NCBI GenBank assembly: GCA_015711855.1 | Contig: JACVJF010000003.1 | Location: 1 to 63,780 of the forward strand | DNA: 63,780 nucleotides | Direction: 5' to 3' | From: Candidatus Solincola quzhuomuensis | GTDB taxonomy: Bacteria; Actinomycetota; Geothermincolia; Geothermincolales; RBG-13-55-18 | Shown here: positions 21,686 through 39,907 of the stretch, in pieces | Numbering within the stretch: position 1 is the first letter of the stretch | How the letters are laid out: each line of letters begins with the position of its first letter | Notes under the pieces: model-generated | What the model saw: only the letters and a program-made list of their open reading frames with translations | Databases searched by the model: none | Told to the model about the DNA's origin: nothing | Position numbers and translations under genes: made by a program

Positions 21686-22507
21686 TTATCCTCCCGTCTC
21701 CTCCAGGCGATGTTCCCCGTTCCGAACCTCCCCGGTCTCCTCGCTCTCGCTCGCCTCCACACTCTCCCCCGTCAGGGACTTTCCCATGGATAGGCCGATC
21801 TTATTCTCCACTCGCTTCAGTTCCTCCTCCGCCCGGCGGAGTTTCCTCTCCACGGCCTCCAGCTCCTTGTGCGTCCGTTCCAACCTGTCCTCCAATTTGC
21901 GGACCAGGGAGTCCAAGGCCTCTAACCTGTCCGCCACCGGGTCGGGAATGGCCTCGTGGTGGAGGTCGATGACCGGCTCGCCCTCCCTGACCACCACCTT
22001 GCCCGGCACCCCGACCACGGTACAGCGGGGAGGAACGTCGCGGATGACCACCGCTCCCGCTCCCACCTTCGAATCGTCCCCGATGGTTATGGGCCCCAGC
22101 ACTTTGGCTCCCGCAGCGATGACCACGTTCCTGCCCACGGTGGGGTGCCGCTTCCCCTTCTCCTTTCCCGTACCGCCCAAAGTCACTCCCTGATAGAGGG
22201 TGACGTTGTCCCCTACTTCCGCCGTTTCCCCGATGACCACGCCCATACCGTGATCTATGAACACACCCTTGCCTATCTTGGCCCCGGGGTGAATCTCTAT
22301 GCCCGTCAGCCAGCGGTTGAGGTGGGAGATCAGGCGGGGCACCACCGGAAGCCCCTTTTTCCACAGCCAATGAGCCAGGCGATGCATCCACAGGGCGTGC
22401 ACCCCCGGATAGGCGAGAAGGATCTCCAGGATGCTGCGGGCGGCGGGATCCCTGTCCCGCGCCGCCTGTATGTCCGTCTTCAGGGTTTCCAACATCTCCC
22501 GCCACAT
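21686..22507 (-). CDS. cysE: Serine O-acetyltransferase
   Basis: [34 protein letters not shown] hexapeptide repeats; coiled-coil tail. Confidence 0.95.
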
Positions 22508-22611: not shown

Positions 22612-24042
22612 TCAGGCGTCCGACCCGGCCAGGGCCTGCCGCAAACGGCGCAGGCACTCTCCCTTGCCCAGCACGTAGAGGAGATAGTGAAGCCCGGGTC
22701 CGTGGTCCTTTCCGGTCAGGGCCACCCGCAGGGGCATGAGGATCTCTCTCGGTTTGACGTCCTTCTCCGCGAAGGCCCTTTTCAGCTCGCCCACCACCTC
22801 CCTGGCGCTTTCCAGGTCCGCCAGCTCCCGGCGGTCCAGGATGTCCGCCGCTTTTTCCAGGACCCTCACGGCCACCTCTCCGCGCAGCCACTCCGCGGTC
22901 TTCTCATCCGGAGGCGCCTTTGTGCCGTAGGTCTGCAGGTATCGCGGCAAATCGCCCAGAGTGGTAATATTATCCAAAACGGATTCCACCATCACCGGGA
23001 AGAGCGCATGACCAGACCACTCCGGAGCGAAACCCCTGGCCGCCTCCACCACCTCCGAGAGGGACATGCGCCGGATGTGCTTCCCGTTCAGCCAATCCAG
23101 GCGCTCCCGATCGAAAACGGCGGGGCTGGAAGATAGGTCACCTATATCGAACAGCTCCAGGAGCTCCTGCAGGTCGAGTACCTCCCGACCCTCCGGCGGG
23201 GACCAGGAGAGCAGGGCCAGGTAGTTGGTCAGGGCTTGCGGTAGGTAGCCCATCTCCCGATATTCCCGTACCGCAGTAGCGCCGTGACGCTTGCTCATCT
23301 TCCCGCCGTCAGGCCCCAGGAGCAAGGAATGGTGAAGGTACATGGGGGGCGTATAGCCAAGGGCATCGAAGAGGAGGAGGTGTCGTGCCGTGTTGGTCAG
23401 ATGATCCTCTCCCCGTATGACATGGGTGATGCCCATGGTGGCGTCGTCCACCACGCCCGCCAGGTGAAAACCCGCCCTTCCGTCGGAACGTATGAGGACG
23501 AAGTCCCCGATGCTGTCCGGCGGGAAGCGGACGAAGCCGTGGAGCAGGTCCTGGAAGGACACCTCCCTTTCCGGAACCCGGAATCGCACCGCCGGCCTCC
23601 TTCCCTGTTCCTCCAGCTCCCGCCTGCGCGCGGAGGAGAGCTCGCGACAGGTCCCGTCGTAGATCGGCGTCCTTCCCTCGGAAAGCGCCCTTTCCTTTTT
23701 CTCTTGCAGTTCCTCCGGGGTGCAGTAACAGGGATAAGTCAAGCCCTTTTCCTCCAGGAGAGCGGCGTGCTCGCGGTAGATCTCGCCCCGCTCGCTCTGG
23801 CGGTAGGGAGCATGCGGCCCCCCTACGTCCGGTCCCTCGTCCCAGTCCAGGCCCAGCCAGCGCAGGTCGAAGAGGATGGCCTCCTCCATCTCCCGGCTCG
23901 ACCTTCCTACGTCCGTATCCTCTATGCGCAGGACGACGCTTCCGCCCTGACCGCGCGCGAATAGCCAATTGAAAAGCGCGGTTCTGGCCGACCCCAGATG
24001 AAGGTATCCGGTGGGGGAAGGGGCAAACCTCACTCTGACCAT
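22612..24042 (-). CDS. gltX: Glutamate--tRNA ligase
   Basis: RFAPSPTGYLHLG, LRIEDTD, CYCT..YDGxC, KMSKR; start placed at ATG 24042. Confidence 0.95.
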   Translation of the reverse strand: MVRVRFAPSPTGYLHLGSARTALFNWLFARGQGGSVVLRIEDTDVGRSSREMEEAILFDLRWLGLDWDEGPDVGGPHAPYRQSERGEIYREHAALLEEKGLTYPCYCTPEELQEKKERALSEGRTPIYDGTCRELSSARRRELEEQGRRPAVRFRVPEREVSFQDLLHGFVRFPPDSIGDFVLIRSDGRAGFHLAGVVDDATMGITHVIRGEDHLTNTARHLLLFDALGYTPPMYLHHSLLLGPDGGKMSKRHGATAVREYREMGYLPQALTNYLALLSWSPPEGREVLDLQELLELFDIGDLSSSPAVFDRERLDWLNGKHIRRMSLSEVVEAARGFAPEWSGHALFPVMVESVLDNITTLGDLPRYLQTYGTKAPPDEKTAEWLRGEVAVRVLEKAADILDRRELADLESAREVVGELKRAFAEKDVKPREILMPLRVALTGKDHGPGLHYLLYVLGKGECLRRLRQALAGSDA

Positions 24043-24261
24043 TAGATCCGCCTTTCCTAGTGTCTCGGGCTCAGCCTTCCGAAAGACGCCATATGAAGCC
24101 GCTTTCCTATAATAACCTCTCACGAGGTCAAGATGACCGCCGGCCTTCAGGTGCGGGGTCGCAGGAGGGAATTCTTCGTCAACTTATCGAACTCGTCAAG
24201 AGAATCGTCTTAAAGAAGGGCCGCCGCAGACACCGACCGGGGGGAAAGGACTGCAAGCCGT

Positions 24262-25338
24262 TCAGCGCGGGATTACCTCCACCAGAAGGTCTCCGTCTTC
24301 TTTCAGTTCCCACTCCACCTCGCTTTCCCCCCCGAAGGCTATCTCGAAAAGACCTTGGGTCAAACCCACGCCCAGCAGCGGCAGGGCCACGTTCTCCATC
24401 TTCAGCTGCACGCCTCTTCTTCCTATGCGCAGGTATGCGAGGTATCCCAGTCCCCGAACGGCCAGCTTCTCCCGCATGCCCTCTTCCCCGGTAACCTCCT
24501 CCACACCGAAAAAGCCGGACTTGACGAAGCGCCTCTGGGCCTCCACGACCACCTTGGGAATAGTTTCCCCGAGTTCGGCCTCCAGCTCCTCGAAGACGGG
24601 ATCGATGATGGATGGACCGGTCAGCACCATGCGTCGACCGGTGGCCGTGCTCCTTATGGAGCCGTTGGCCAGGTCCCACTTGAACTCACGGAGCGCCAAG
24701 GGGGCATCGCATGAAGAGCACCTTTCCATCCGCCACTCGGCTCTCTTGTACTCGCGCGCATAAGCGGACCAGCGCAACCTGCTCTTGAGCTCGGGCGGGT
24801 TCGGGGACTCGAAGACGGTTATGCAGAAAACCCCGGGCGAAGTCTCCTCATATTCCACCCCGGGCTCCCTTCCCACCAGGGCTTCCACGGACCCGGCTAA
24901 ACTCCCTACCGCCAGCGGGACGGAAAAAGGGCGCTCCGCGAGAACGGTGATGAAGTCGTCTTCCTTGCCTTCATACTTGATGTCCACCAGGTTGAGCACG
25001 CCGTAACCCATGGCCTTCCAGATGAGAAAGGTGGGCTCAATGATAAGCTTCAGGTCTACCCCGCCCTCCGCGACCGTCTCCCTGACGTCCTCCGGCACCA
25101 CACCGCGCATGTAATCGCGTGCCGATCTTCGCGAGGCATCCACTACCAGGCGGTCGATGGGAAGGCCGATCAACTCGGATATCCCGTTGAAGAGGGGATC
25201 CAAATTTCCACACTCGAAGAGGACCAGTCTCTGTTTCGCTTCCCTTCGGGACTGGATCACTCCGTTCTCCGTCCAGGCGTGCTGACTGCTGATATAGAGG
25301 GGTAATCCGCACTGAGTGCAAGTTTCGAAAGCGTGCAT
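24262..25338 (-). CDS. Hypothetical protein with tandem CxxC + V4R-like modules (paralogue 1)
   Basis: 358-aa ORF with RBS; internal duplication; colinear with 37254-38324. Confidence 0.8.
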   Translation of the reverse strand: MHAFETCTQCGLPLYISSQHAWTENGVIQSRREAKQRLVLFECGNLDPLFNGISELIGLPIDRLVVDASRRSARDYMRGVVPEDVRETVAEGGVDLKLIIEPTFLIWKAMGYGVLNLVDIKYEGKEDDFITVLAERPFSVPLAVGSLAGSVEALVGREPGVEYEETSPGVFCITVFESPNPPELKSRLRWSAYAREYKRAEWRMERCSSCDAPLALREFKWDLANGSIRSTATGRRMVLTGPSIIDPVFEELEAELGETIPKVVVEAQRRFVKSGFFGVEEVTGEEGMREKLAVRGLGYLAYLRIGRRGVQLKMENVALPLLGVGLTQGLFEIAFGGESEVEWELKEDGDLLVEVIPR

Positions 25339-25503
25339 TACCGCATGGCTCCTTCGGCTCCCATAGGACTAAAAAGGCGATCCTCGCCGTGGGCACGATC
25401 TCAGCCCTACTCTTTCCGGCAGGTTGGGGACTTCCCGGTTCAGCGAGCCGATATCCTCTCGAACGTTGCTTGTGAGGACGGGTTCACCCGTCGATGCGGT
25501 GAT

Positions 25504-25532
25504 ATTATATCCGTTGCCAAACAGCCGAACAA
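25504..25532 (-). promoter_or_regulatory. Promoter TTGTTC-N17-TATAAT upstream of paralogue 1
   Basis: Canonical spacing, about 165 nt before the ATG. Confidence 0.5.
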
Positions 25533-25570: not shown

Positions 25571-26206
25571 TCACTTACCCTCCACCATGAAGCGAACGTG
25601 CTCGCCTATATCCACGGCATGGTCAGCGATACGTTCGAAGAAGCGAGCGATCATCACGATGCGCACCGCCACCTCCAGTTCTTCCTCCCTTCCGCGGTCG
25701 AACTCCTTGAAAAAGCCGCGGTAGAGGCGGTCCACTGCGTCGTCCATGGCATCCAGCTCCCGGGCCATCTCCACGTTGCGTTCCTTAAAGCATTCCATGG
25801 CCCTCTCCACTAGCCGGATGGCCCGACGAGCCATCTCGTCAATGGCCTCCCTTATCCAAGAGTGAATCCGGTCTACACGGATGTTCTTAACCGCCATCGC
25901 TATGTCCTCGCAGAGGTCCGCCATGCGCTCGAACTTCTGGGCGATACGCATGATGACGATTATCAGCCGCAGGTCGATGGCCACGGGGGCCTGCCGCGCG
26001 AGCAGTTCGAGCCCTCCCTCCTCCAGCCGGTTGCGGTAATCGTCGAAAAGATCGTCCCCGGCGATGATGTCATCCGCCGCATCCCTGTCGAGCTCCAGGA
26101 AACACAGGCGGGTCTTCTCTATGATGCGCAGGAGGTCGCTGCCCATGCGCAGGGTCTCCTCGTAAAGCTCATTTAGCCTCTGGTGAAAATCCTTTCTGGC
26201 CTCCAA
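25571..26206 (-). CDS. phoU: Phosphate signalling protein PhoU
   Basis: QAPVAIDLR, ERMADL, DDAVD, FERIADHAVDI; TTG start after GAGGAG (GTG 26233 is an alternative). Confidence 0.93.
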   Translation of the reverse strand: MEARKDFHQRLNELYEETLRMGSDLLRIIEKTRLCFLELDRDAADDIIAGDDLFDDYRNRLEEGGLELLARQAPVAIDLRLIIVIMRIAQKFERMADLCEDIAMAVKNIRVDRIHSWIREAIDEMARRAIRLVERAMECFKERNVEMARELDAMDDAVDRLYRGFFKEFDRGREEELEVAVRIVMIARFFERIADHAVDIGEHVRFMVEGK

Positions 26207-26370
26207 AACATCTCTCCTCTCAACGCTCGTCACGCTCCGCGAGGGTTTCCCCGCCTCACCCCCTTAGGAACTAAGCCGGCCGGAATCTCTTCACGCAGGC
26301 CTTCCCCTTTTCCGGACCCGGATCCCCTCGCTTCGGGCGGCGCGCCCTCCTGGGACCTGGCGGCGCCCTT

Positions 26371-29205: not shown

Positions 29206-30069
29206 TTAGATCCTTGTCATGGGGACATATTCCTTGGCCACCACCTCGTCCTGGAACCGGTCCGAAAGGACGAAGTCTATGAAGGCCTTAACCAGTCCGG
29301 AGGCCTCCCCCTTGGTGAACATGTGCAAGTATCGGGATAGCGGGTAGGTCTTGCTGACCGCGTTTTCCACGCTGGCCGCCACCCCGTCGTACTTCAAGGC
29401 CTTCACCGAATTGTCGAGGTATCCGAGGGATATATACCCGATGGAGAAGGGGGTGGAGGAAACCGTCTGTCGCACGATCCCGTTGCTGTTGCACTCGATG
29501 GCCCCGGCCACCGGCTTCTCCTTCCCCAGGGCTTTCTCGTCGAACATCTCGCGGGTCCCGGAGGCCTCATCCCGTACGACCACTTTGACGGCCTGATCCG
29601 GCCCTCCCACTTCCTTCCAATTGGTTATCTTCCCCGTAAAGATGCCCTTGACTTGGTCCTTGGTGAGGTTATCCACGGGTACTTCCTTATGGGCTATGAC
29701 CACGATGACGTCGAGGGCTATCCTGTGGTCCACGAGCCCCAAACTCCTCTCCTCGTCCTTCAGCTCACGGGAGGAATTGCCTATGTCCACCACGCCCTCG
29801 GCCACATTGGAGATGCCCACGCTGGAACCGCCGCCCTGCACGTTCACCGTCACCTCGGGGTTTTCGTCCATGAACATCTCCGCGGCCTCCTGAGCGATGG
29901 GGAGCACCGTGGTGGAACCGGAGAGGCTCAGGGTCCCCGACAGCTTCGGCCTCTCCTCCTCGCCCTCGGTCTCCTTCCCGCCTCCGCCGCAGCCCGTCGC
30001 CAATACCGCCGATATAAGGACCAGCGTAAGCACGACGGCAGCGGAGTAAAGGAACTTTTTACCGGCCAT
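29206..30069 (-). CDS. pstS: Phosphate-binding lipoprotein
   Basis: Lipobox LATGC, SGSTTVLP, QGGGSSVG, RDEASGTR, YPLSRYL. Confidence 0.95.
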   Translation of the reverse strand: MAGKKFLYSAAVVLTLVLISAVLATGCGGGGKETEGEEERPKLSGTLSLSGSTTVLPIAQEAAEMFMDENPEVTVNVQGGGSSVGISNVAEGVVDIGNSSRELKDEERSLGLVDHRIALDVIVVIAHKEVPVDNLTKDQVKGIFTGKITNWKEVGGPDQAVKVVVRDEASGTREMFDEKALGKEKPVAGAIECNSNGIVRQTVSSTPFSIGYISLGYLDNSVKALKYDGVAASVENAVSKTYPLSRYLHMFTKGEASGLVKAFIDFVLSDRFQDEVVAKEYVPMTRI

Positions 30070-30270: not shown

Positions 30271-30448
30271 AGGTGAACCTCGACGTCGTTCCGCGTGCCG
30301 TTCCCGCTCAAGGCGCAAGGTAGCACATCGCCAGTGACGCTATAGAGGCCTTCGCCCTGCTTCAACCCGATATCTTCCGCACGGCGACGGGACTTCCTCG
30401 CCTCAAGGACTCCCGATGGGGGAAAGCCTCCAAGCGGTGCAATGATGC

Positions 30449-32236
30449 TCAATATCCTTCTTGCCGCGCGCTCTCAGGCGGCTGGGGTAGGTAAACGAGG
30501 AAAACGGACCCTTCCCCCGGTTCGCTCTGCACGGTCACCGATCCTCCGTGGAGCTCGACGATATGCTTGACGATGGAAAGTCCCAGCCCCGTCCCTCCCG
30601 TCTCGCGCGAGCGCGCCCGGTCCACCCGATAGAACCTCTCGAAGATGCGGGGCAGCTCTTCGCGGGGCATGCCCACGCCCGTATCCCGGACCTCGAGTAC
30701 CAACCCTCTCGACTCCCGGCGGCAGCCGACCGACACTCGGCCTCCCGGCCGGTTGTACTTGACCGCGTTGTCCAGGAGGTTGTCCAACAAGGTGGCCAGG
30801 AGGCGGCGGTCCGCCTCCACCGTCAGCTCCCCGCTCAGGTCCGCGTTTATCTCCACCCCGTAATTCGCGGCCAGCTTGGACTTCCTTTCCAGGCATTCGG
30901 CGACCAGTTCGCGCAGCGGAACGCTTTCCAGGCGCAACACCGTCTCGCCGGCTTCCAGCCGGCTCAGGGCGAGCAGGTCCTCGATGAGCTGGGAAAGCCT
31001 CGCCGTCTCGCGATCCAGATCCCGAAGGAACCGGTCCGCCGTCTCTTTCTCCTCCAGGGCCCCACCCAGCAGGGATTCGGTCAGGGCGCGCACGGTGGCC
31101 ACCGGGGTGCGGAGCTCGTGAGAGACGTTGGCCACGAAATCCTGCCTGATGCGGTCCACGCGTCTCAACAGGGTGATGTCTTCCAGGGTGCTGACCGTGG
31201 CCATGACCTGTCCGTCCGAGCCCCTTACCGGACCGGACTTGAGGCGCAGATGCATGTGCCGGGGGTAGAGGAATTCCAGGTCAAACTCCACTCCCTCGCC
31301 GGCGGCGGCTCTCTTTACCGCCTCCTCCAGCTCCGTGCTGGAAAACACCTCGATAAGGCGGCGACCCCGGGCTTTTTCGGCGTCAACTCCCAGTATGTCC
31401 ACCGCGGCCGGATTGAGAAGAAGGATGCGATTATCACGGTCCGCCACCAACACACCGGTGGACACGCTTTCCAGAATGGCTACCAGTTTATTCCTTTCGG
31501 AGTCCGCTTCCTCCATGCGCCTGCGCACTTCTTCGGCCATGGCGTTGAAACTCTCCGCCAGCTCCTTGAAATCGGTTATGCTCGGCGCGTCGACCCTCTT
31601 GCGGAGATTCCCCGCCGAAACGTCGGACACCCCTTCCCGAAGCCCGTCCAAGGCTCCCACCACCGACCTCTCCGCCCACACGCTGGCAGCCACGATCACC
31701 AGGAGGAGAAGCCCGAAGGCGGCCAGGAATATCCCCCAAACCCTCAGGATGACCGGCATGACGCTCTCCTCCTGTACGGAGACGCGCGCCACCCCCACCG
31801 TCTCGCCCCCCAGCTTCACGGGCGCCGCGGCATAGATGAACCTTTTGCCCAGAGTTCGCGACTCGCGGCTGGCCGAGGACACCTCTCCACGAAGGGCAGC
31901 CGCCACCTCCGGGCGACCGGCGTGGTTCTCCATCTGCGCGGCAGTAAACTCCGAGTCCCCGAGCACCCTTCCTCGGGTATCGATAACCGTGAGTCTTACG
32001 GAAAGCTCGCCGGCCAGTTCCTTGAGGAAAAGGTCAACCTCATCGGGTGTCATCTCCCCGGTGAAAAATCGGTCGGCCTGGCCGGCGAAGAGCTGGGCCT
32101 GTTCCTCCAGGTTCCTCCTCTCCCTGGAAAGGGTATAGCTCCTGATGGGGATGACCACGAGTAGAGAGAGGAGCACAAGGACCACGGTGACCAGGATGGT
32201 GTAGCGGGTGATGAGGATGCGTTTCAGGCTCTTCAA
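30449..32236 (-). CDS. phoR: PhoR/SenX3-type sensor kinase (Cache-like, HAMP, PAS, HisKA, HATPase)
   Basis: DFVANVSHELRTP, NLLDNAVKY, FERFYRVDRARSRETGGTGLGL; TTG start overlapping the response-regulator TGA. Confidence 0.9.
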   Translation of the reverse strand: MKSLKRILITRYTILVTVVLVLLSLLVVIPIRSYTLSRERRNLEEQAQLFAGQADRFFTGEMTPDEVDLFLKELAGELSVRLTVIDTRGRVLGDSEFTAAQMENHAGRPEVAAALRGEVSSASRESRTLGKRFIYAAAPVKLGGETVGVARVSVQEESVMPVILRVWGIFLAAFGLLLLVIVAASVWAERSVVGALDGLREGVSDVSAGNLRKRVDAPSITDFKELAESFNAMAEEVRRRMEEADSERNKLVAILESVSTGVLVADRDNRILLLNPAAVDILGVDAEKARGRRLIEVFSSTELEEAVKRAAAGEGVEFDLEFLYPRHMHLRLKSGPVRGSDGQVMATVSTLEDITLLRRVDRIRQDFVANVSHELRTPVATVRALTESLLGGALEEKETADRFLRDLDRETARLSQLIEDLLALSRLEAGETVLRLESVPLRELVAECLERKSKLAANYGVEINADLSGELTVEADRRLLATLLDNLLDNAVKYNRPGGRVSVGCRRESRGLVLEVRDTGVGMPREELPRIFERFYRVDRARSRETGGTGLGLSIVKHIVELHGGSVTVQSEPGEGSVFLVYLPQPPESARQEGY

Positions 32237-32931
32237 CTTATCTCTCCGCTTGCCTCGAAGCGATAGCCCACCCCCCGAACGGTTATTATGCGGCTGGGGC
32301 GAGACGGATCCGGCTCGACCTTCTCCCGAAGCCGCCTGATGTGCACTTCCAGGGTCTTGCTCTGGCCGTAATAGTCCCCCTCCCAAACTTGGCCGATCAG
32401 GTACTCTCGGGGAAGGGCCTTACCGGGATGGCGTAGGAAGAGTTCCAGGAGGCGATATTCCATGAGGGGCATCTCCACCACCCTACCGCCCACTCTCACC
32501 TCGTGCCGCTCCCGGTCCAGCTCGATGTCCCCGGAGCGGAGGATAGCCTCCTCCCTCGCCTCCCTGTCTTTTGCCCCCCGACGGAGGACAGCCTTCACCC
32601 TCGCCGTGAGCTCCCGCATGTTGAAGGGCTTGGTGACGTAGTCATCGGCGCCCATCTCCAGACCCAGGACCTTGTCCACGTCGGAATCCTTGGCCGTGAG
32701 CATGATCACCGGTACGTCGCTCTCCTTGCGCAGCCTCCGGCATATCTCCATCCCGTCCATGCCCGGCAGCATGAGGTCCAGAAGGACCAGGTCGTAGGCA
32801 CCCTCCCGGCATTTCCTCCAGCCGCTCTCCCCGTCGAGGGCTATGTCCACCTGGTATCCTTCCTTCTCCAGGCTGAAACCCACCGCCTCCGCCAGCGGCC
32901 TCTCGTCCTCGATGATGAGTATTCTTTTCAC
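32233..32931 (-). CDS. phoB: PhoB/RegX3-type OmpR-family response regulator
   Basis: Receiver plus winged helix (VHIRRLREKVE, TVRGVGYRF); upstream of phoR-pst. Confidence 0.9.
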   Translation of the reverse strand: MKRILIIEDERPLAEAVGFSLEKEGYQVDIALDGESGWRKCREGAYDLVLLDLMLPGMDGMEICRRLRKESDVPVIMLTAKDSDVDKVLGLEMGADDYVTKPFNMRELTARVKAVLRRGAKDREAREEAILRSGDIELDRERHEVRVGGRVVEMPLMEYRLLELFLRHPGKALPREYLIGQVWEGDYYGQSKTLEVHIRRLREKVEPDPSRPSRIITVRGVGYRFEASGEIS

Positions 32932-33272
32932 GCGCCAACCTCGAAAGTACGCCTCCCGTGTGCACAACGCCGATTTTAATATACCCCATTTCGTTTTATC
33001 GCCGACAAGGCTTAGCTTGCGTGCGGTTCCCGATTACCCGCACCGTGAAGTAGGTGACGCAAAGGGGTGCCGGGATGGGTGGTGGGGAGGGGCCTTTCGG
33101 CCCCTCCCGCTCATCAGGGTGGGAGAGTGGCTTAACCGCAAAGACGCTCCTCTTGTCCCTGCCCCGTTTCTCTTTTTCCAATTCCGCCGGATCCCTGCGC
33201 AATCCGATTTTTTGGGCCTCCTGCCTTCACCAATCGCTTTCGCCCCACGCCGGTCAGCCCCAAGCGAAAGGA

Positions 33273-35592: not shown

Positions 35593-36777
35593 TTATTCCA
35601 CCTTCTCCCAAAGGGTGGCGTTGGCGTTTCCGAAGCCGCCGCACAGAGTGGCGATGGCTCGCTTGGCCTCCGGGAAGTCCTTCTTCATGATGTTGTTCAG
35701 GGTGATGACGATGCGGCATCCGGACTCCCCTAGGGGATGACCCAGGGCCAGCGCCCCGCCCCACACGTTTATGTTGTCAAAGGGGGCGTTCTGCCCGATG
35801 CCCAGTTCGCGGATGACCGCCAGGGCCTGGGTGCCGAAGGCCTCGTTGAGCTCCCAGAGGTCGATGTCGTTTATGGTTAGTCCCTTGCGGGCCAGGAGCT
35901 TCTGTACCGCGTACACCGGCCCTATCCCCATGATGGTGGGGTCGCAACCGGCCATGCACCCGCCGCCATAACGGAGGTGATAGGAGAGACCCAACTCGTC
36001 GGCCTTCTCCCGGCTCATAAACAGCGCAGCGCAGGCCCCTACCGTCAGGGGTGAGCTGATGGCCGCGGTGACGATGCCGTCGGGCTTGAAGGCCGGCTGC
36101 ATCTGGGCCATCTGCTCCAGGCTGGGGTTATCCCGGATCCACTGATCGCGGTCGCAGAGGAACTCGTTCCCGTTCTCGTCCAGAGCGGGTATGGGGACGA
36201 TCTCGTCCTTGAACTTTCCGGCGTCGCGGGCGTCGCGGGCTTTAATGTGGCTCCAGTAGGCCATGAGTTCGGCGTCGGCGCGGGAGACGTTGTAGACCTC
36301 GGCAATCTTCTCCGCCGTGGCCCCCATGGGAAGTTCGAGGGGGTTGTAATACTGGGCGATACGGGGCGGGATGTCCATACCCGCGGCCATGGGTACGTTC
36401 ATCATGTCTTCCACCCCGGAGGCGATGAAGATCTCGCCTTCCCCGGCCATGATAGCCCGGCAGGCATGTTCGATGGCCGACATCCCCGAGGGGCACTGCT
36501 GGTTGATGCCGTTGGTAGGCACGCTCTCCGGCAGCCCGGAGGCCAGCCACCCAAGGCGGGCGATGTCGTTCTGCATGCCGGTCTGGTTGGCGGTGCCGCA
36601 GAACACCGCGTCCACGTCCTCCGGCTTCACCTGCGGGTTGCGCTCGAAGAGCGCCTTGTACACGTAGGTGAGTAGTTCGTCCGGACGCAGGTGCCGAGCC
36701 CATCCCTTTTCCTTGTGGGCCCGGAAGTTGGGAGTCCTCACCCCGTCCACCAAGACCGCTTCCTTCAATTCTGCCAT
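35593..36777 (-). CDS. Acetyl-CoA C-acyltransferase (classical thiolase)
   Basis: NQQCPSG, NEAF, GGALALGHPLGESG and LCGGFG catalytic motifs. Confidence 0.92.
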   Translation of the reverse strand: MAELKEAVLVDGVRTPNFRAHKEKGWARHLRPDELLTYVYKALFERNPQVKPEDVDAVFCGTANQTGMQNDIARLGWLASGLPESVPTNGINQQCPSGMSAIEHACRAIMAGEGEIFIASGVEDMMNVPMAAGMDIPPRIAQYYNPLELPMGATAEKIAEVYNVSRADAELMAYWSHIKARDARDAGKFKDEIVPIPALDENGNEFLCDRDQWIRDNPSLEQMAQMQPAFKPDGIVTAAISSPLTVGACAALFMSREKADELGLSYHLRYGGGCMAGCDPTIMGIGPVYAVQKLLARKGLTINDIDLWELNEAFGTQALAVIRELGIGQNAPFDNINVWGGALALGHPLGESGCRIVITLNNIMKKDFPEAKRAIATLCGGFGNANATLWEKVE

Positions 36778-37253
36778 GTCCCTTACTCTCCTTCCTATCC
36801 TCCGATGCTTACAATAAAACACCTCTCCATCGAGGCCTCTATGACCTTCACGCCATACATGCAGTCGACCTCCCTCCTCCCCGGAAACCCCGAGCTCACC
36901 TTCTCGACCTTGCTGTCCCGCCTTTCCGGGAGAAGTTACCGAAGATAAAACAAGGCTTGGGTAATTATATCAAATTCATGACATCCGAGTACCCGATCAA
37001 GGGAGGGCTTCGTAGGGCAGAGACTCGGTCGGCAGCCGGCCATGACGGATTTTCTCGTTCGTGAAGAGGGAGGTGTCAGCGGATAAGCGGCCGTTAAACC
37101 CAGACGTAAAAAGACCGCGAGGAGGGCGGATGTGTCCGGTTGGGTGGAGTGGTAAACTAACATAGACCGAGAGATTCCGTCAAAAGCAGAGGAGAAAAGG
37201 CCGGGGGGTCGACATCTCGATCCGACCTCCACTAAAACATGGGAGGAGTGGAT

Positions 37254-38324
37254 ATGGAAGGCGTGGAGTTCTGTCCGGTGTGCGGCGTGCCGCGCCAGTT
37301 CGTGGAGAACCATACCTGGCTCGACAACGGCGTGATCGTCCAGACCTCCGATCGCCAGCACCGCATGGTGATCATGGAGAGCGAGAACCTGGACAATCTC
37401 TACCGCGGCATAGAGGAGATCATAGGTATACCCGTGGAGCGTATCGTCATCGAGACCAAGCGAAGGGCTACCCGGGAATACATAGACCGACTGGTGCCGG
37501 AAGAGGTCAAGGACATGGTGTTCCGCAAGGAGCTCGACATAGAGTTGTTGATCCAAGCCAACAACAACATCGCCCGCATCATGGGTTACGGGGACGTGCG
37601 CGTGAAGGGCTACAGGTTGGAGTTCGACGAGGGCGATTACCTCGAGGAAGAGGTGAGAAACCCATACTCCGTACCCATGTGGTGCGGGGACCTGGCGGGG
37701 GCGGTGGAAGCCGTGACTCGCCGCGACAACGACGTGGAATACCGCATGATCTCCTCAGACGTGGTGGAGATCAAAGCCTTTCCTGCGGAACATCCCCCTC
37801 AGTTCCAGGGGCGGCTGGAGTTGAAGGAGTACCATTTGCTCGAGGGGGAGGTCGGCCTGGACCGCTGTAAAACGTGCGGAGGACCTTCGGGTCTCTCCGC
37901 CCTCAAGTGGGCCCTGGAGGAAGGCACCATCAAGGACACCACCACGGGTCGGCGGGTGGTCATGCTCGGGCCCGCTTACCAGGAAGCGGTCTTCGAGGAG
38001 CTGGAGAGGGAGCTCGGAGAGGAGATCCCGCAAACCATCGTGGAGGCCCAGAGGCGCTTCGTGAGATCCGGCTTTTACCGGGTGAAGGAGATAGAGAGCG
38101 AGGATCAGTTCCGCAAGCTTCTGGCCCTACGCGGCCTGGGCAACCTACGCACGCTGGCTTTGGAGGGAGACCGGCTGCGGGTCCGCCTGGAAAATGCTGC
38201 CCTCCACCTAATGATCGTGGGGTTGCTGCAAGGCTACCTGGAGACCCTCACCGGTCGCGATTCGGCCGCGGAGTGGAATCTTACCCCGGAGGGAGTTCTC
38301 GAATTGGAGATCGTCGCCCGTTAA
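37254..38324 (+). CDS. Hypothetical protein with tandem CxxC + V4R-like modules (paralogue 2)
   Basis: 356 aa, GGAGGAG RBS; colinear with 24262-25338. Confidence 0.8.
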   Translation: MEGVEFCPVCGVPRQFVENHTWLDNGVIVQTSDRQHRMVIMESENLDNLYRGIEEIIGIPVERIVIETKRRATREYIDRLVPEEVKDMVFRKELDIELLIQANNNIARIMGYGDVRVKGYRLEFDEGDYLEEEVRNPYSVPMWCGDLAGAVEAVTRRDNDVEYRMISSDVVEIKAFPAEHPPQFQGRLELKEYHLLEGEVGLDRCKTCGGPSGLSALKWALEEGTIKDTTTGRRVVMLGPAYQEAVFEELERELGEEIPQTIVEAQRRFVRSGFYRVKEIESEDQFRKLLALRGLGNLRTLALEGDRLRVRLENAALHLMIVGLLQGYLETLTGRDSAAEWNLTPEGVLELEIVAR

Positions 38325-38458: not shown

Positions 38459-39907
38459 TCACGCGCTCGAAGCGGAGCGCCCGGGAAGGACGGAGACGAA
38501 AATCCTCCAGTCGGAGGCGTCGAAGGTACGCAGCAAGAAGAGCGCTCCCAGATAGGAGGCCACGTACACCGGCGCGAGGCCATAGAAGGGAAGGGCGGAG
38601 CGCAGGGGGAGGCATACCATTGCAGCCCCCAAGGCGGCCAAAGCCGGCTTCCAGTTCCCCAGAAGGCGGGGATGGATACGCATGTGTCTCCAGGCCAGAA
38701 AGAGGGTTAACCCCAGCATGGCCACCTCCGAGATCAGGGTGCTGACCGCAGCGCCCAAAAACCCCATTGCCGGAGCCAACGCCAGGCACAGGACCACGTT
38801 CAATCCCGCGCAGGACAGGATGGCCATCATGCTCAGCTTCTGCTTGTAGTGCGCGTTCATGAGATCGATGAGAGGTATGTAGGTGAAGCTGAAAAGCGGG
38901 ATGGCGGCCAGGACCCAAAGGGCGGATCGGGCGGAGAGGTAGGATTCCCCGTAGATCATTCTTATAAGCTGGGGGGCAAAAAGGGCCATGATCCCGCAGA
39001 AGGGCAGGCTGACGCAAGCCAGATATTTGACCACCCTGCGTATGACCTCCCGGTGTCTATGATCGGAGGACCTTCCTATCCTGGAGAGAAACGGAAACAC
39101 TGCGGTCATACAGGTGGCGGGAACCACGGCCATGGCCCAGATGATGCGGTACGCGGAGCTGAACAGGCCGGCCTGGTGATCGCCCTTGAAGGCGGAGACC
39201 AGCACCGTGTCCGTATACCCGAAGAGAAAGGTCACCAGCCCAATGATCCCGAAGGGCAGGGCGCCGGCGATCATCTTCTTCCAGAAGGCCAGGTTCCAGG
39301 TAAAGGCGGGCTGGCCCATCCTGCGGGTCAGGATGACGAAGTCCACCCCTAAAGAGACCACCGCCCCCACCATCAGGGCGTAGGAGATACCCACCAACCC
39401 GTAGCCCTTGAGCAGTAGGAACGAGCCCACCCCGAAGGTCAAGAGGATATCCACCAGGTCGGAGAGGGCCTGGTACTTCATGACCTCGAAGGCCTGGAAG
39501 ACGGCATCGAAGAATCGCCTCAGCCCGGTGAACACCACGTAGCTCAGCCCGATGAGAAAAAGAGGAAGACGGGTATCGGTGGACCGGGAGGTTAGGGCTA
39601 TGACGGCATAGATGATCCCCGCACTGGCTATCCCGGTCAGGAGCCTCAGCACCGTCAGGTCGCCCACGTACCGGGCCACGTTGTCCCGGTTGGCGGCCAG
39701 CTCCCTCACCACCAGCTTGGGAAGGCCCATCTCCCCCAGGATGAGCAGGATATAGGCCAGGGAAAGGGCGAAGGAATAGGCGCCGAAGCCCTCCGTTCCC
39801 AGCCGGCGGGCTACGAGCACGGTGAAGAGGGGCATGAGCACCGCGCGGAAGGTCCCCCCTCCCATGATCACCAATATGTTCCTGGCTATTCTCTTGGCGT
39901 CTTCCAA
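38459..39907 (-). CDS. Wzx/MOP-family oligosaccharide flippase
   Basis: 12-14 TMs; ARRLGTEGFGAYSFAL and QAGLFSSAYRI patterns. Confidence 0.8.
   Translation of the reverse strand: MEDAKRIARNILVIMGGGTFRAVLMPLFTVLVARRLGTEGFGAYSFALSLAYILLILGEMGLPKLVVRELAANRDNVARYVGDLTVLRLLTGIASAGIIYAVIALTSRSTDTRLPLFLIGLSYVVFTGLRRFFDAVFQAFEVMKYQALSDLVDILLTFGVGSFLLLKGYGLVGISYALMVGAVVSLGVDFVILTRRMGQPAFTWNLAFWKKMIAGALPFGIIGLVTFLFGYTDTVLVSAFKGDHQAGLFSSAYRIIWAMAVVPATCMTAVFPFLSRIGRSSDHRHREVIRRVVKYLACVSLPFCGIMALFAPQLIRMIYGESYLSARSALWVLAAIPLFSFTYIPLIDLMNAHYKQKLSMMAILSCAGLNVVLCLALAPAMGFLGAAVSTLISEVAMLGLTLFLAWRHMRIHPRLLGNWKPALAALGAAMVCLPLRSALPFYGLAPVYVASYLGALFLLRTFDASDWRIFVSVLPGRSASSA

Follow-up and report, generated by a model that had tools for sequence, protein, structure and literature searches.

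We analyzed a window of 63,780 nucleotides (nt) from Candidatus Solincola quzhuomuensis (contig JACVJF010000003.1, assembly GCA_015711855.1) and studied a protein-coding gene that occupies positions 24262..25338 on its minus strand. The reading frame runs uninterrupted from an ATG at 25338 to a TGA at 24262-24264 and translates into a protein of 358 amino acids (P0001). A sequence-only reading of this DNA had described the product as a tandem of CxxC-opened, V4R/H-NOX-like modules, and every peptide quoted there is present in the translation. The deposited gene call, P0002, has only 303 amino acids, begins at an internal TTG (Leu56) and hence loses 55 conserved residues together with the first CxxC knuckle (25171..25338, minus strand). 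Because residues 1-55 are conserved in 47 full-length homologues of about 358 amino acids, we take the ATG at 25338 as the real start; the P0002 start on the contig record is probably mis-annotated. A Shine-Dalgarno sequence, AAGGAG, can be read at 25349..25354 (minus strand), 10 nt 5' of this ATG.

Upstream of the gene lies phoU (25571..26233, minus strand), itself preceded by pstB and pstA; we named these three genes by their translations in the window and by the Pfam families assigned to their syntenic counterparts in a relative (L001). Downstream, gltX (22612..24123) and cysE (21686..22507) follow on the same strand as the target gene, and the order phoU-target-gltX-cysE matches that in L001.

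The protein is built from two homologous modules

The N- and C-terminal halves of the protein are 28% identical (BLASTP E 1e-9), and profiles of the two halves from 201 members aligned over 153 columns in hhalign (probability 99.75%, E 2.8e-27). The two modules are hence homologous, i.e., the sequence-only reading had correctly divided the protein into repeats, which measure about 160-180 residues each. According to its DSSP elements, the N-module (residues 1-180; 24799..25338, minus strand) extends from a cysteine knuckle to a terminal hairpin and forms the variable lobe. The C-module (residues 200-358; 24265..24741, minus strand) has the same predicted fold and is the more conserved lobe. 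Both are joined by a linker (residues 181-199; 24742..24798, minus strand) that lies in an indel-rich stretch of the alignment and has the lowest model confidence (predicted local distance difference test, pLDDT, of 72-76 for residue blocks 181-200 in AlphaFold2).

Signature residues recur at equivalent places in both modules, i.e., C7/C207, C10/C210, P13/P213, W22/W221, G26/G226, R37/R236, the turns G111-x-G113/G296-x-G298, G145/G325 and E152/E332. Also, DSSP analysis of the AlphaFold2 model gave an identical string of elements for both halves, in agreement with the order formerly read from the letters: knuckle, short helix, three strands, helices, G-x-G turn, two strands, G-x3-G helix and two strands. 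Each module is opened by a CxxC motif, as had been stated, namely C7-T-Q-C10-G-L-P (25300..25320, minus strand), a rubredoxin-type CxxCG knuckle, and C207-S-S-C210-D-A-P (24700..24720, minus strand).

Both modules are predicted to fold like DmpR-type sensory domains

AlphaFold2 modeled the whole protein from a 48-sequence alignment with a pLDDT of 88.3 and a predicted template modeling score (pTM) of 0.85; the C-module modeled alone reached 90.3 and 0.83, respectively. When the PDB was searched with Foldseek using the whole protein, PoxR ranked first; MopR, DmpR and H-NOX also scored near the top with similar E-values, and TRAPP Bet3/TPC6, YslB and the V4R protein MJ1460 came further down. For the isolated C-module, the top nine matches were all MopR or PoxR, with template modeling (TM) scores (TMq) to 0.64-0.65 over about 175 columns (E 2e-5), followed by Bet3, YslB and BcsD (0.5-0.58) and H-NOX (0.46-0.50). 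Foldseek assigned the predicted structure to the V4R/XylR_N/H-NOX/Bet3 superfamily fold, a helical layer on a four-stranded sheet, with a probability of 1.00. The models hence confidently place each module in the fold of the effector-sensing domain of MopR, PoxR and DmpR, and the V4R/H-NOX-like fold call of the sequence-only reading stands at the level of the model.

At the level of sequence, this relationship was not detected. V4R (PF02830), XylR_N (PF06505) and HNOB (PF07700) gave no match at E<=10 in any of 48 members, and the V4R hidden Markov model recovered the XylR A domain as positive control (42.3 bits, E 7.9e-11). With hhalign, we obtained a probability of 1.4% against XylR alone and of 2.3% against a 120-sequence XylR/DmpR A-domain profile, which is a weak test given its low diversity (Neff 1.6). 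The best local hhalign match in both modules was to the equivalent strand and helix (XylR 33-59), which is suggestive only. Membership in the V4R, XylR_N or H-NOX families therefore did not hold up by sequence. Searches of Pfam, NCBIfam and PDB sequences with the single protein, the family profile and the C-module profile returned no known family; the only matches were below threshold and all to zinc-knuckle proteins (eL37, zf-Mss51, TFIIB ribbon). An output domain (AAA+, helix-turn-helix (HTH), kinase or cyclase) was likewise absent by Pfam and NCBIfam, as had been anticipated, and members have a uniform length of about 355-370 amino acids. We conclude that the protein belongs to an unnamed family that is new within the known V4R/XylR-A/H-NOX/Bet3 fold superfamily and is set apart by its tandem modules, its putative Cys4 site and the lack of an output domain.

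The A domains of DmpR, PoxR, MopR and XylR hence are the closest known counterparts, as the structural match extends over the entire module, N-terminal strands included, and the order of secondary-structure elements is identical. They differ in that they share no detectable sequence similarity with the family and are linked to AAA+/DNA-binding output, which is absent here, whereas two copies are fused in one chain in the present protein. Moreover, their phenol-contacting His/Trp pair is not conserved in the family.

Invariant cysteines and covariation point to a probable shared site between the modules

C7, C10, C207 and C210 are invariant in the 202 full-length members, i.e., C7 and C10 were found in 195 of 195 sequences covering the N-terminus and C207 and C210 in 202 of 202. 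A divergent branch also keeps all four, and Gly follows the CxxC motif in 76-79% of members. No further conserved Cys or His was found in the 202 members, with H20 (68%) and H180 (41%) less frequent. Weak matches to known knuckles, centered on CxxCG-x-P, occurred for zf-Mss51 (36 of 48 members), Zn_ribbon_TFIIB (28 of 48) and RUBY_RBDX (13 of 48).

In DmpR, zinc is bound by C151, E172, C177 and C185 (PMC7264223). These ligands have no counterpart in the family alignment; the usual C-terminal V4R Cys/Glu zinc ligands are absent, as the sequence-only reading had inferred for the cysteines, and conserved cysteines are confined to the N-terminal CxxC motifs. The accompanying proposal of one N-terminal zinc knuckle per module fared less well: a CxxC does open each module, but there are only two conserved ligands per module, and covariation joins the two knuckles. 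Two ligands cannot hold a metal, so the knuckles share one site or act as dithiols.

We analyzed covariation by mean-field direct-coupling analysis (DCA) of 280 sequences (Meff 218; 62,128 pairs). The analysis behaved sensibly, since its top intramodule pairs recovered hairpins of the AlphaFold2 model (T23-Q29, V161-V175, A301-E315, V341-V355, C7-P13). The two strongest couplings were both inter-module, L40-M237 (2.01) and S17-A212 (1.96). L40-M237 connects strand 37-42 with its counterpart 236-240, in a register that fits an antiparallel pair centered on the dyad, and a further inter-module coupling was found for R32-M237. In the model of the C-module alone, only 2 residues of strand 236-240 remain, which would be explained by pairing of this strand with the N-module. 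S17-A212 connects the helix after the N-knuckle with the C-knuckle and shows size compensation (T/G, S/A, G/V). The knuckles themselves are coupled via T8-A212 (rank 58) and Q9-S209 (rank 75), Q9 and S209 occupying the same x position in their CxxC motifs; these two knuckle-by-knuckle pairs among the top 100 compare with 0.10 expected (P about 0.005). The modules hence co-vary across an interface that includes strands 37-42/236-240 and the two CxxCG knuckles. Residues of the RR motif, R269 and R270, are also coupled to the other module (I57-R269, L56-R270) and therefore look like interface residues rather than ligand contacts.

As the covariation suggests contact between the knuckles, a single Cys4 site shared at the pseudo-dyad appears likelier than one zinc knuckle per module. 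The inter-module couplings would fit an arrangement like that of the DmpR dimer, where residues 18-45 intertwine to form an interlocked homodimer (PMC7264223). DmpR-type domains also possess a Cys-based metal site and an internal cavity; their V4R zinc ligands are, however, missing here, and instead the CxxCG knuckles of both modules appear to form the shared site. In rubredoxin and zinc-ribbon M(Cys)4 centers, two CxxCG knuckles, each on a β-hairpin, are related by a pseudo-dyad. The knuckles of the present family likewise lie on predicted hairpins (C7-P13 coupling, DSSP bridges) and would be arranged in a comparable way, but they are 200 residues apart in two large domains, and a true rubredoxin or ribbon domain is absent.

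The N-lobe varies between paralogues

Conservation is distributed unevenly, with 18 positions conserved to at least 90% in the C-module versus 9 in the N-module. Conversely, when positions were ranked by how well they distinguish six orthogroups, 30 of the top 40 fell into the N-module (binomial P 0.006). Most of these paralogue-specific positions belong to helices 62-80, 96-110 and 140-155 or to strands b4-b7, elements that, given the DmpR sensory-domain topology of the module, may enclose the putative cavity. This pattern would be expected if the N-lobe varies to set specificity while the C-lobe stays constant.

The family is expanded in uncultured Actinomycetota

A first search returned 357 full-length homologues, and a profile search of 1.84 billion representatives returned 517 proteins at E<=1e-3. 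Full-length members have about 345-380 amino acids and cover both modules; shorter matches are fragments. Single-module or differently fused relatives were not found, and the C-module profile searched against 5.8 billion proteins retrieved same-family fragments only. We considered the only long member (P0149, 549 residues) as a fusion with an extra domain and rejected it, as its tail is of low complexity and looks like out-of-frame read-through.

In species-representative genomes, 74 loci were located, and wherever the record is specific they belong to Geothermincolia-type metagenome-assembled genomes (MAGs; Candidatus Solincola, Geothermincola, Anoxymicrobiaceae). Records labeled "Actinomycetota" or "uncultured bacterium" and a doubtful "Acidimicrobium ferrooxidans" label are excluded from this statement. 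So far, the family is found only in uncultured hot-spring and subsurface Actinomycetota. The MAG labeled Acidimicrobium ferrooxidans (contigs DYIU01000001-3; L018, L019, L039, L048, L049) holds at least 5 copies; since the family otherwise occurs only in Geothermincolia-type MAGs, we regard the label of this assembly as doubtful and probably wrong. Single MAGs carry up to at least 9 copies, and single-linkage clustering at 52% identity divides the family into 16 groups. The nearest relative of the target is from Ca. Solincola tengchongensis (74% identity).

The window contains a second, intact paralogue at 37239..38324 on the plus strand (tblastn E 5.6e-82, residues 1-358), which is 40.5% identical to the target end to end and has no Pfam or NCBIfam match. 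It is flanked by genes for a thiolase (35593..36822, minus strand) and a polysaccharide flippase (38459..39907, minus strand), and this arrangement recurs in a relative (L004). Other relatives contain broken copies, with two in-frame stops at L012:7190-8344, one in-frame stop at L043:3378-4598, and frameshifts at L003/L018:4754-5847, L070:5971-7099, L071:1-827 and L075:5887-7040. These are probably young pseudogenes. From the occurrence of such frameshifted and stop-broken copies, we conclude that the family undergoes birth-and-death evolution.

Gene neighborhoods differ between orthogroups

We clustered the neighbors of 79 family open reading frames (window and 78 loci) and found no partner gene common to the orthogroups. 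GltX is the commonest neighbor (10 loci) but was rejected as a universal partner, as this is simple synteny of one orthogroup. The layout in the target orthogroup is phoU-X-(X2)-gltX-cysE, where in six relatives (L001, L009, L010, L011, L014, L056) a second tandem copy, about 39% identical to the first, precedes gltX. The window and its closest relatives have no second copy at this locus, which implies that it was lost or never gained in the window lineage.

A conserved cluster is found in another orthogroup (L058:702-11903, also in L045, L050, L054, L057, L060 and L077). It starts with genes for a PASTA Ser/Thr kinase, a GGR-family FAD reductase (TIGR02032, 224 bits versus a cut-off of 158.8), a B12-binding radical-SAM protein and a family member, continues with MazG on the opposite strand, a CARDB-like protein, a GAF/HisKA_3 histidine kinase and a LuxR-type response regulator, and ends with a divergent family member of about 380 amino acids in which all four cysteines are kept. 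At 7 of the 13 loci of this orthogroup, the family gene directly follows the B12 radical-SAM gene in the same direction, and a GGR-family gene is present as well in 6. The cluster fits a greasy ligand or a signaling link for that orthogroup. No other observation hints at signaling or at an isoprenoid or lipid ligand, and the hint is not transferable to the target copy.

A proposed single-chain pseudo-dimer as receptor or carrier

We propose that the target protein is a soluble, non-catalytic single-chain pseudo-dimer of two XylR-A/V4R-like ligand-binding modules, with a putative Cys4 staple, a specificity N-lobe and a constant C-lobe, and estimate the probability of this reading at about 50%. 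Its most likely role would be that of a stand-alone small-molecule receptor or carrier. The chain would mimic the interlocked homodimer that DmpR-type sensory domains form via their N-terminal segments, and the two rubredoxin-type knuckles would meet on the pseudo-dyad to form one M(Cys)4 center (Zn or Fe) that staples the lobes. A small ligand, probably amphipathic or hydrophobic, would be accommodated in an internal cavity of each lobe. Ligand specificity would be set by the variable N-lobe and differ between the ten or more paralogue lineages. The conserved C-lobe and the interface would carry a common function, most likely contact in trans with a partner protein, as in stand-alone H-NOX proteins.

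V4R, TRAPPC3 and H-NOX proteins share fold, dimer geometry and cavities, with varying positions of the Zn ligands, and members of the superfamily bind palmitate, haem and phenols (PMC10933270). Stand-alone H-NOX proteins (Tt H-NOX, So H-NOX; TM 0.46-0.50) likewise have no output domain and act in trans on kinases or cyclases, and one branch of the present family adjoins a histidine kinase/response regulator pair. In contrast to H-NOX, the 202 members lack the invariant proximal His and the Y-x-S-x-R motif, there is no HNOB match, and the family has a tandem architecture, a putative Cys4 site and no generally conserved kinase or cyclase neighbor. Bet3/TPC6, MJ1460, YslB and Thor-TRAPPC3 have the same fold (TM 0.52-0.58 by target); the Bet3/V4R proteins are obligate dimers with internal hydrophobic cavities, and Thor-TRAPPC3 has a Cys4 zinc site. 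However, these proteins are single-module, dimerize via N-terminal helices and show no sequence similarity to the family, and their zinc site lies within one subunit, where it ties the sheet to a helix.

Several observations weigh against the pseudo-dimer model. The likeness to V4R/XylR_N rests on predicted structure, and all sequence and profile tests failed. The knuckle-knuckle couplings rank only moderately high (58 and 75), and DCA scores can be inflated by phylogenetic structure. The C-knuckle is confidently predicted (pLDDT 93) in the C-module folded alone, i.e., it needs no partner module to form. The conserved RR and acidic motifs seem to belong to the interface, and there is no conserved pocket residue that would indicate a ligand class. 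Nor is any neighbor gene common across orthogroups, and an expression search for the target locus returned two DNA runs with 7% of words and no RNA.

The cysteines might also be more than a staple. As a redox or metal sensor, the protein would use the Cys4 center as the sensing element, be it Fe(Cys)4, an inter-lobe [2Fe-2S] cluster or a thiol/disulfide switch, and oxidation or metal loss would loosen the lobes and alter partner binding. The four cysteines are indeed the most conserved feature of the family, CxxCG is the rubredoxin type of knuckle with the weak RUBY_RBDX matches described above, and the hosts are Geothermincolia-type organisms with an anaerobic, thermophilic lifestyle. Fe-S sensing also has a precedent in the bacterial sensor domain OrpR (PMC8359166). 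Nevertheless, we consider this explanation unlikely, because nothing separates Fe from Zn, the Cys site in related V4R/TRAPPC3 proteins is a structural zinc (PMC7264223, PMC10933270), and the diversification of the N-lobe between paralogues is left unexplained. Ligand binding might, on the other hand, serve transport: a carrier or chaperone would bind an isoprenoid, quinone, lipid or tetrapyrrole as a hydrophobic intermediate of biosynthesis and pass it on to radical enzymes or enzymes at the membrane. This would agree with the palmitate bound by Bet3 and the haem and phenols bound elsewhere in the superfamily, with the radical-SAM and GGR-family genes next to one orthogroup, and with other copies that adjoin genes for a thiolase, an acyl-CoA ligase, a glycosyltransferase or a flippase. 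The V4R protein BchJ is said to have been proposed as a carrier of this kind. Yet the GGR/radical-SAM linkage is confined to that one orthogroup, and the target copy is flanked by phoU and gltX rather than by lipid or isoprenoid genes, which makes a dedicated carrier function doubtful.

Far less probable is a zinc-ribbon transcription or translation factor whose knuckles contact DNA or RNA. The weak knuckle matches to Zn_ribbon_TFIIB, to a DNA-ligase zinc finger and to ribosomal protein eL37, the conserved arginines R37, R236 and R269/R270 and the adjoining gltX gene could be read this way, but all matches are below thresholds and cover the CxxCG-x-P motif alone, whereas the ligand-binding fold makes up about 95% of the protein. 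Moreover, the conserved arginines co-vary with the other module, which assigns them to the interface and not to the surface, and neither an HTH nor another nucleic-acid-binding domain was found with Pfam or NCBIfam. An enzyme with an unrecognized active site on the V4R-like scaffold would account for the polar C-module residues conserved to at least 90% (R236, E255, N316, E332). To our knowledge, however, catalytic H-NOX/V4R/Bet3-like domains do not occur in any of the Foldseek neighbors. Neither a motif for cofactor binding nor a match to a catalytic family was found, and birth-and-death evolution that leaves many pseudogenes is seen more typically in receptor families; we hence regard catalysis as highly improbable.

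If the pseudo-dimer model is right, the family represents a new sensor build from the ancient V4R/H-NOX/Bet3 fold, in which an obligate dimer is fused, pinned by Cys4 and devoid of an output domain. About ten copies have accumulated in the small genomes of an uncultured, deep-branching actinobacterial class; the size of one published Candidatus Solincola MAG is given as 2.82 Mb (PMC12917137). A more speculative extension, which we hold with little confidence, is a hitherto undescribed class of stand-alone, single-chain receptors restricted to Geothermincolia. Two DmpR-like pockets would be clamped by a rubredoxin-type Fe/Zn(Cys)4 center on the pseudo-dyad, the variable N-lobe would read a paralogue-specific metabolite and the metal center the redox or metal status, and the constant C-lobe would relay both inputs in trans to one shared partner, e.g., a kinase, a PhoU-type regulator or an enzyme. 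With ten or more such genes, a genome would encode a metabolite-sensing array in place of the one-component regulators of other bacteria. Pseudo-dimers of this kind would be natural thermostable single-chain ligand-binding scaffolds with one variable and one constant lobe, of possible use in biosensor design, as MopR and DmpR already are. The family offers a handle on Geothermincolia physiology and, being without a model in the searched Pfam and NCBIfam copies, could receive one. For the window taken by itself, the target is one more member of the family and gives no clue to its specific ligand.

Promoter, leader and flanking signals

The sequence-only reading had assigned the gene its own promoter. 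This candidate sigma-70-type promoter is present at 25504..25532 on the minus strand, with TTGTTC (25532..25527), a 17-nt spacer and TATAAT (25509..25504), and would give a leader of about 158 nt. An automated promoter scan omitted it because the -35 hexamer matches at only 3 of 6 positions; comparable TTGnnn/TAnAAT pairs are located 5' of the orthologues in three relatives (L005, L006, L007). A riboswitch or attenuator in the leader was considered and rejected, as the folding z-score was 0.03 and the sole Rfam match far below threshold. We also dismissed a terminator-like hairpin at 25388..25376 (minus strand; GGCGA-GGA-TCGCC followed by TTTTT), about 38 nt before the start, which has 5 bp and is no more than found in shuffled sequence.

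No terminator was detected after the target gene, and transcription may continue into gltX. Between the target stop and gltX, a gap of 138 nt contains a promoter-like TTGACG-17-AAGAAT at 24171..24199 (minus strand). A GTTCACC motif, the core of actinobacterial PhoP (PHO box) sites, is found at 30272..30278 (minus strand), about 200 nt upstream of the start of pstS (29206..30069). As a candidate signal for Pho-regulon membership, the target promoter has only a loose GTTCGGC/GTTTGGC pair. A PhoR/PhoP-like kinase/regulator pair is encoded at 30449..32967.

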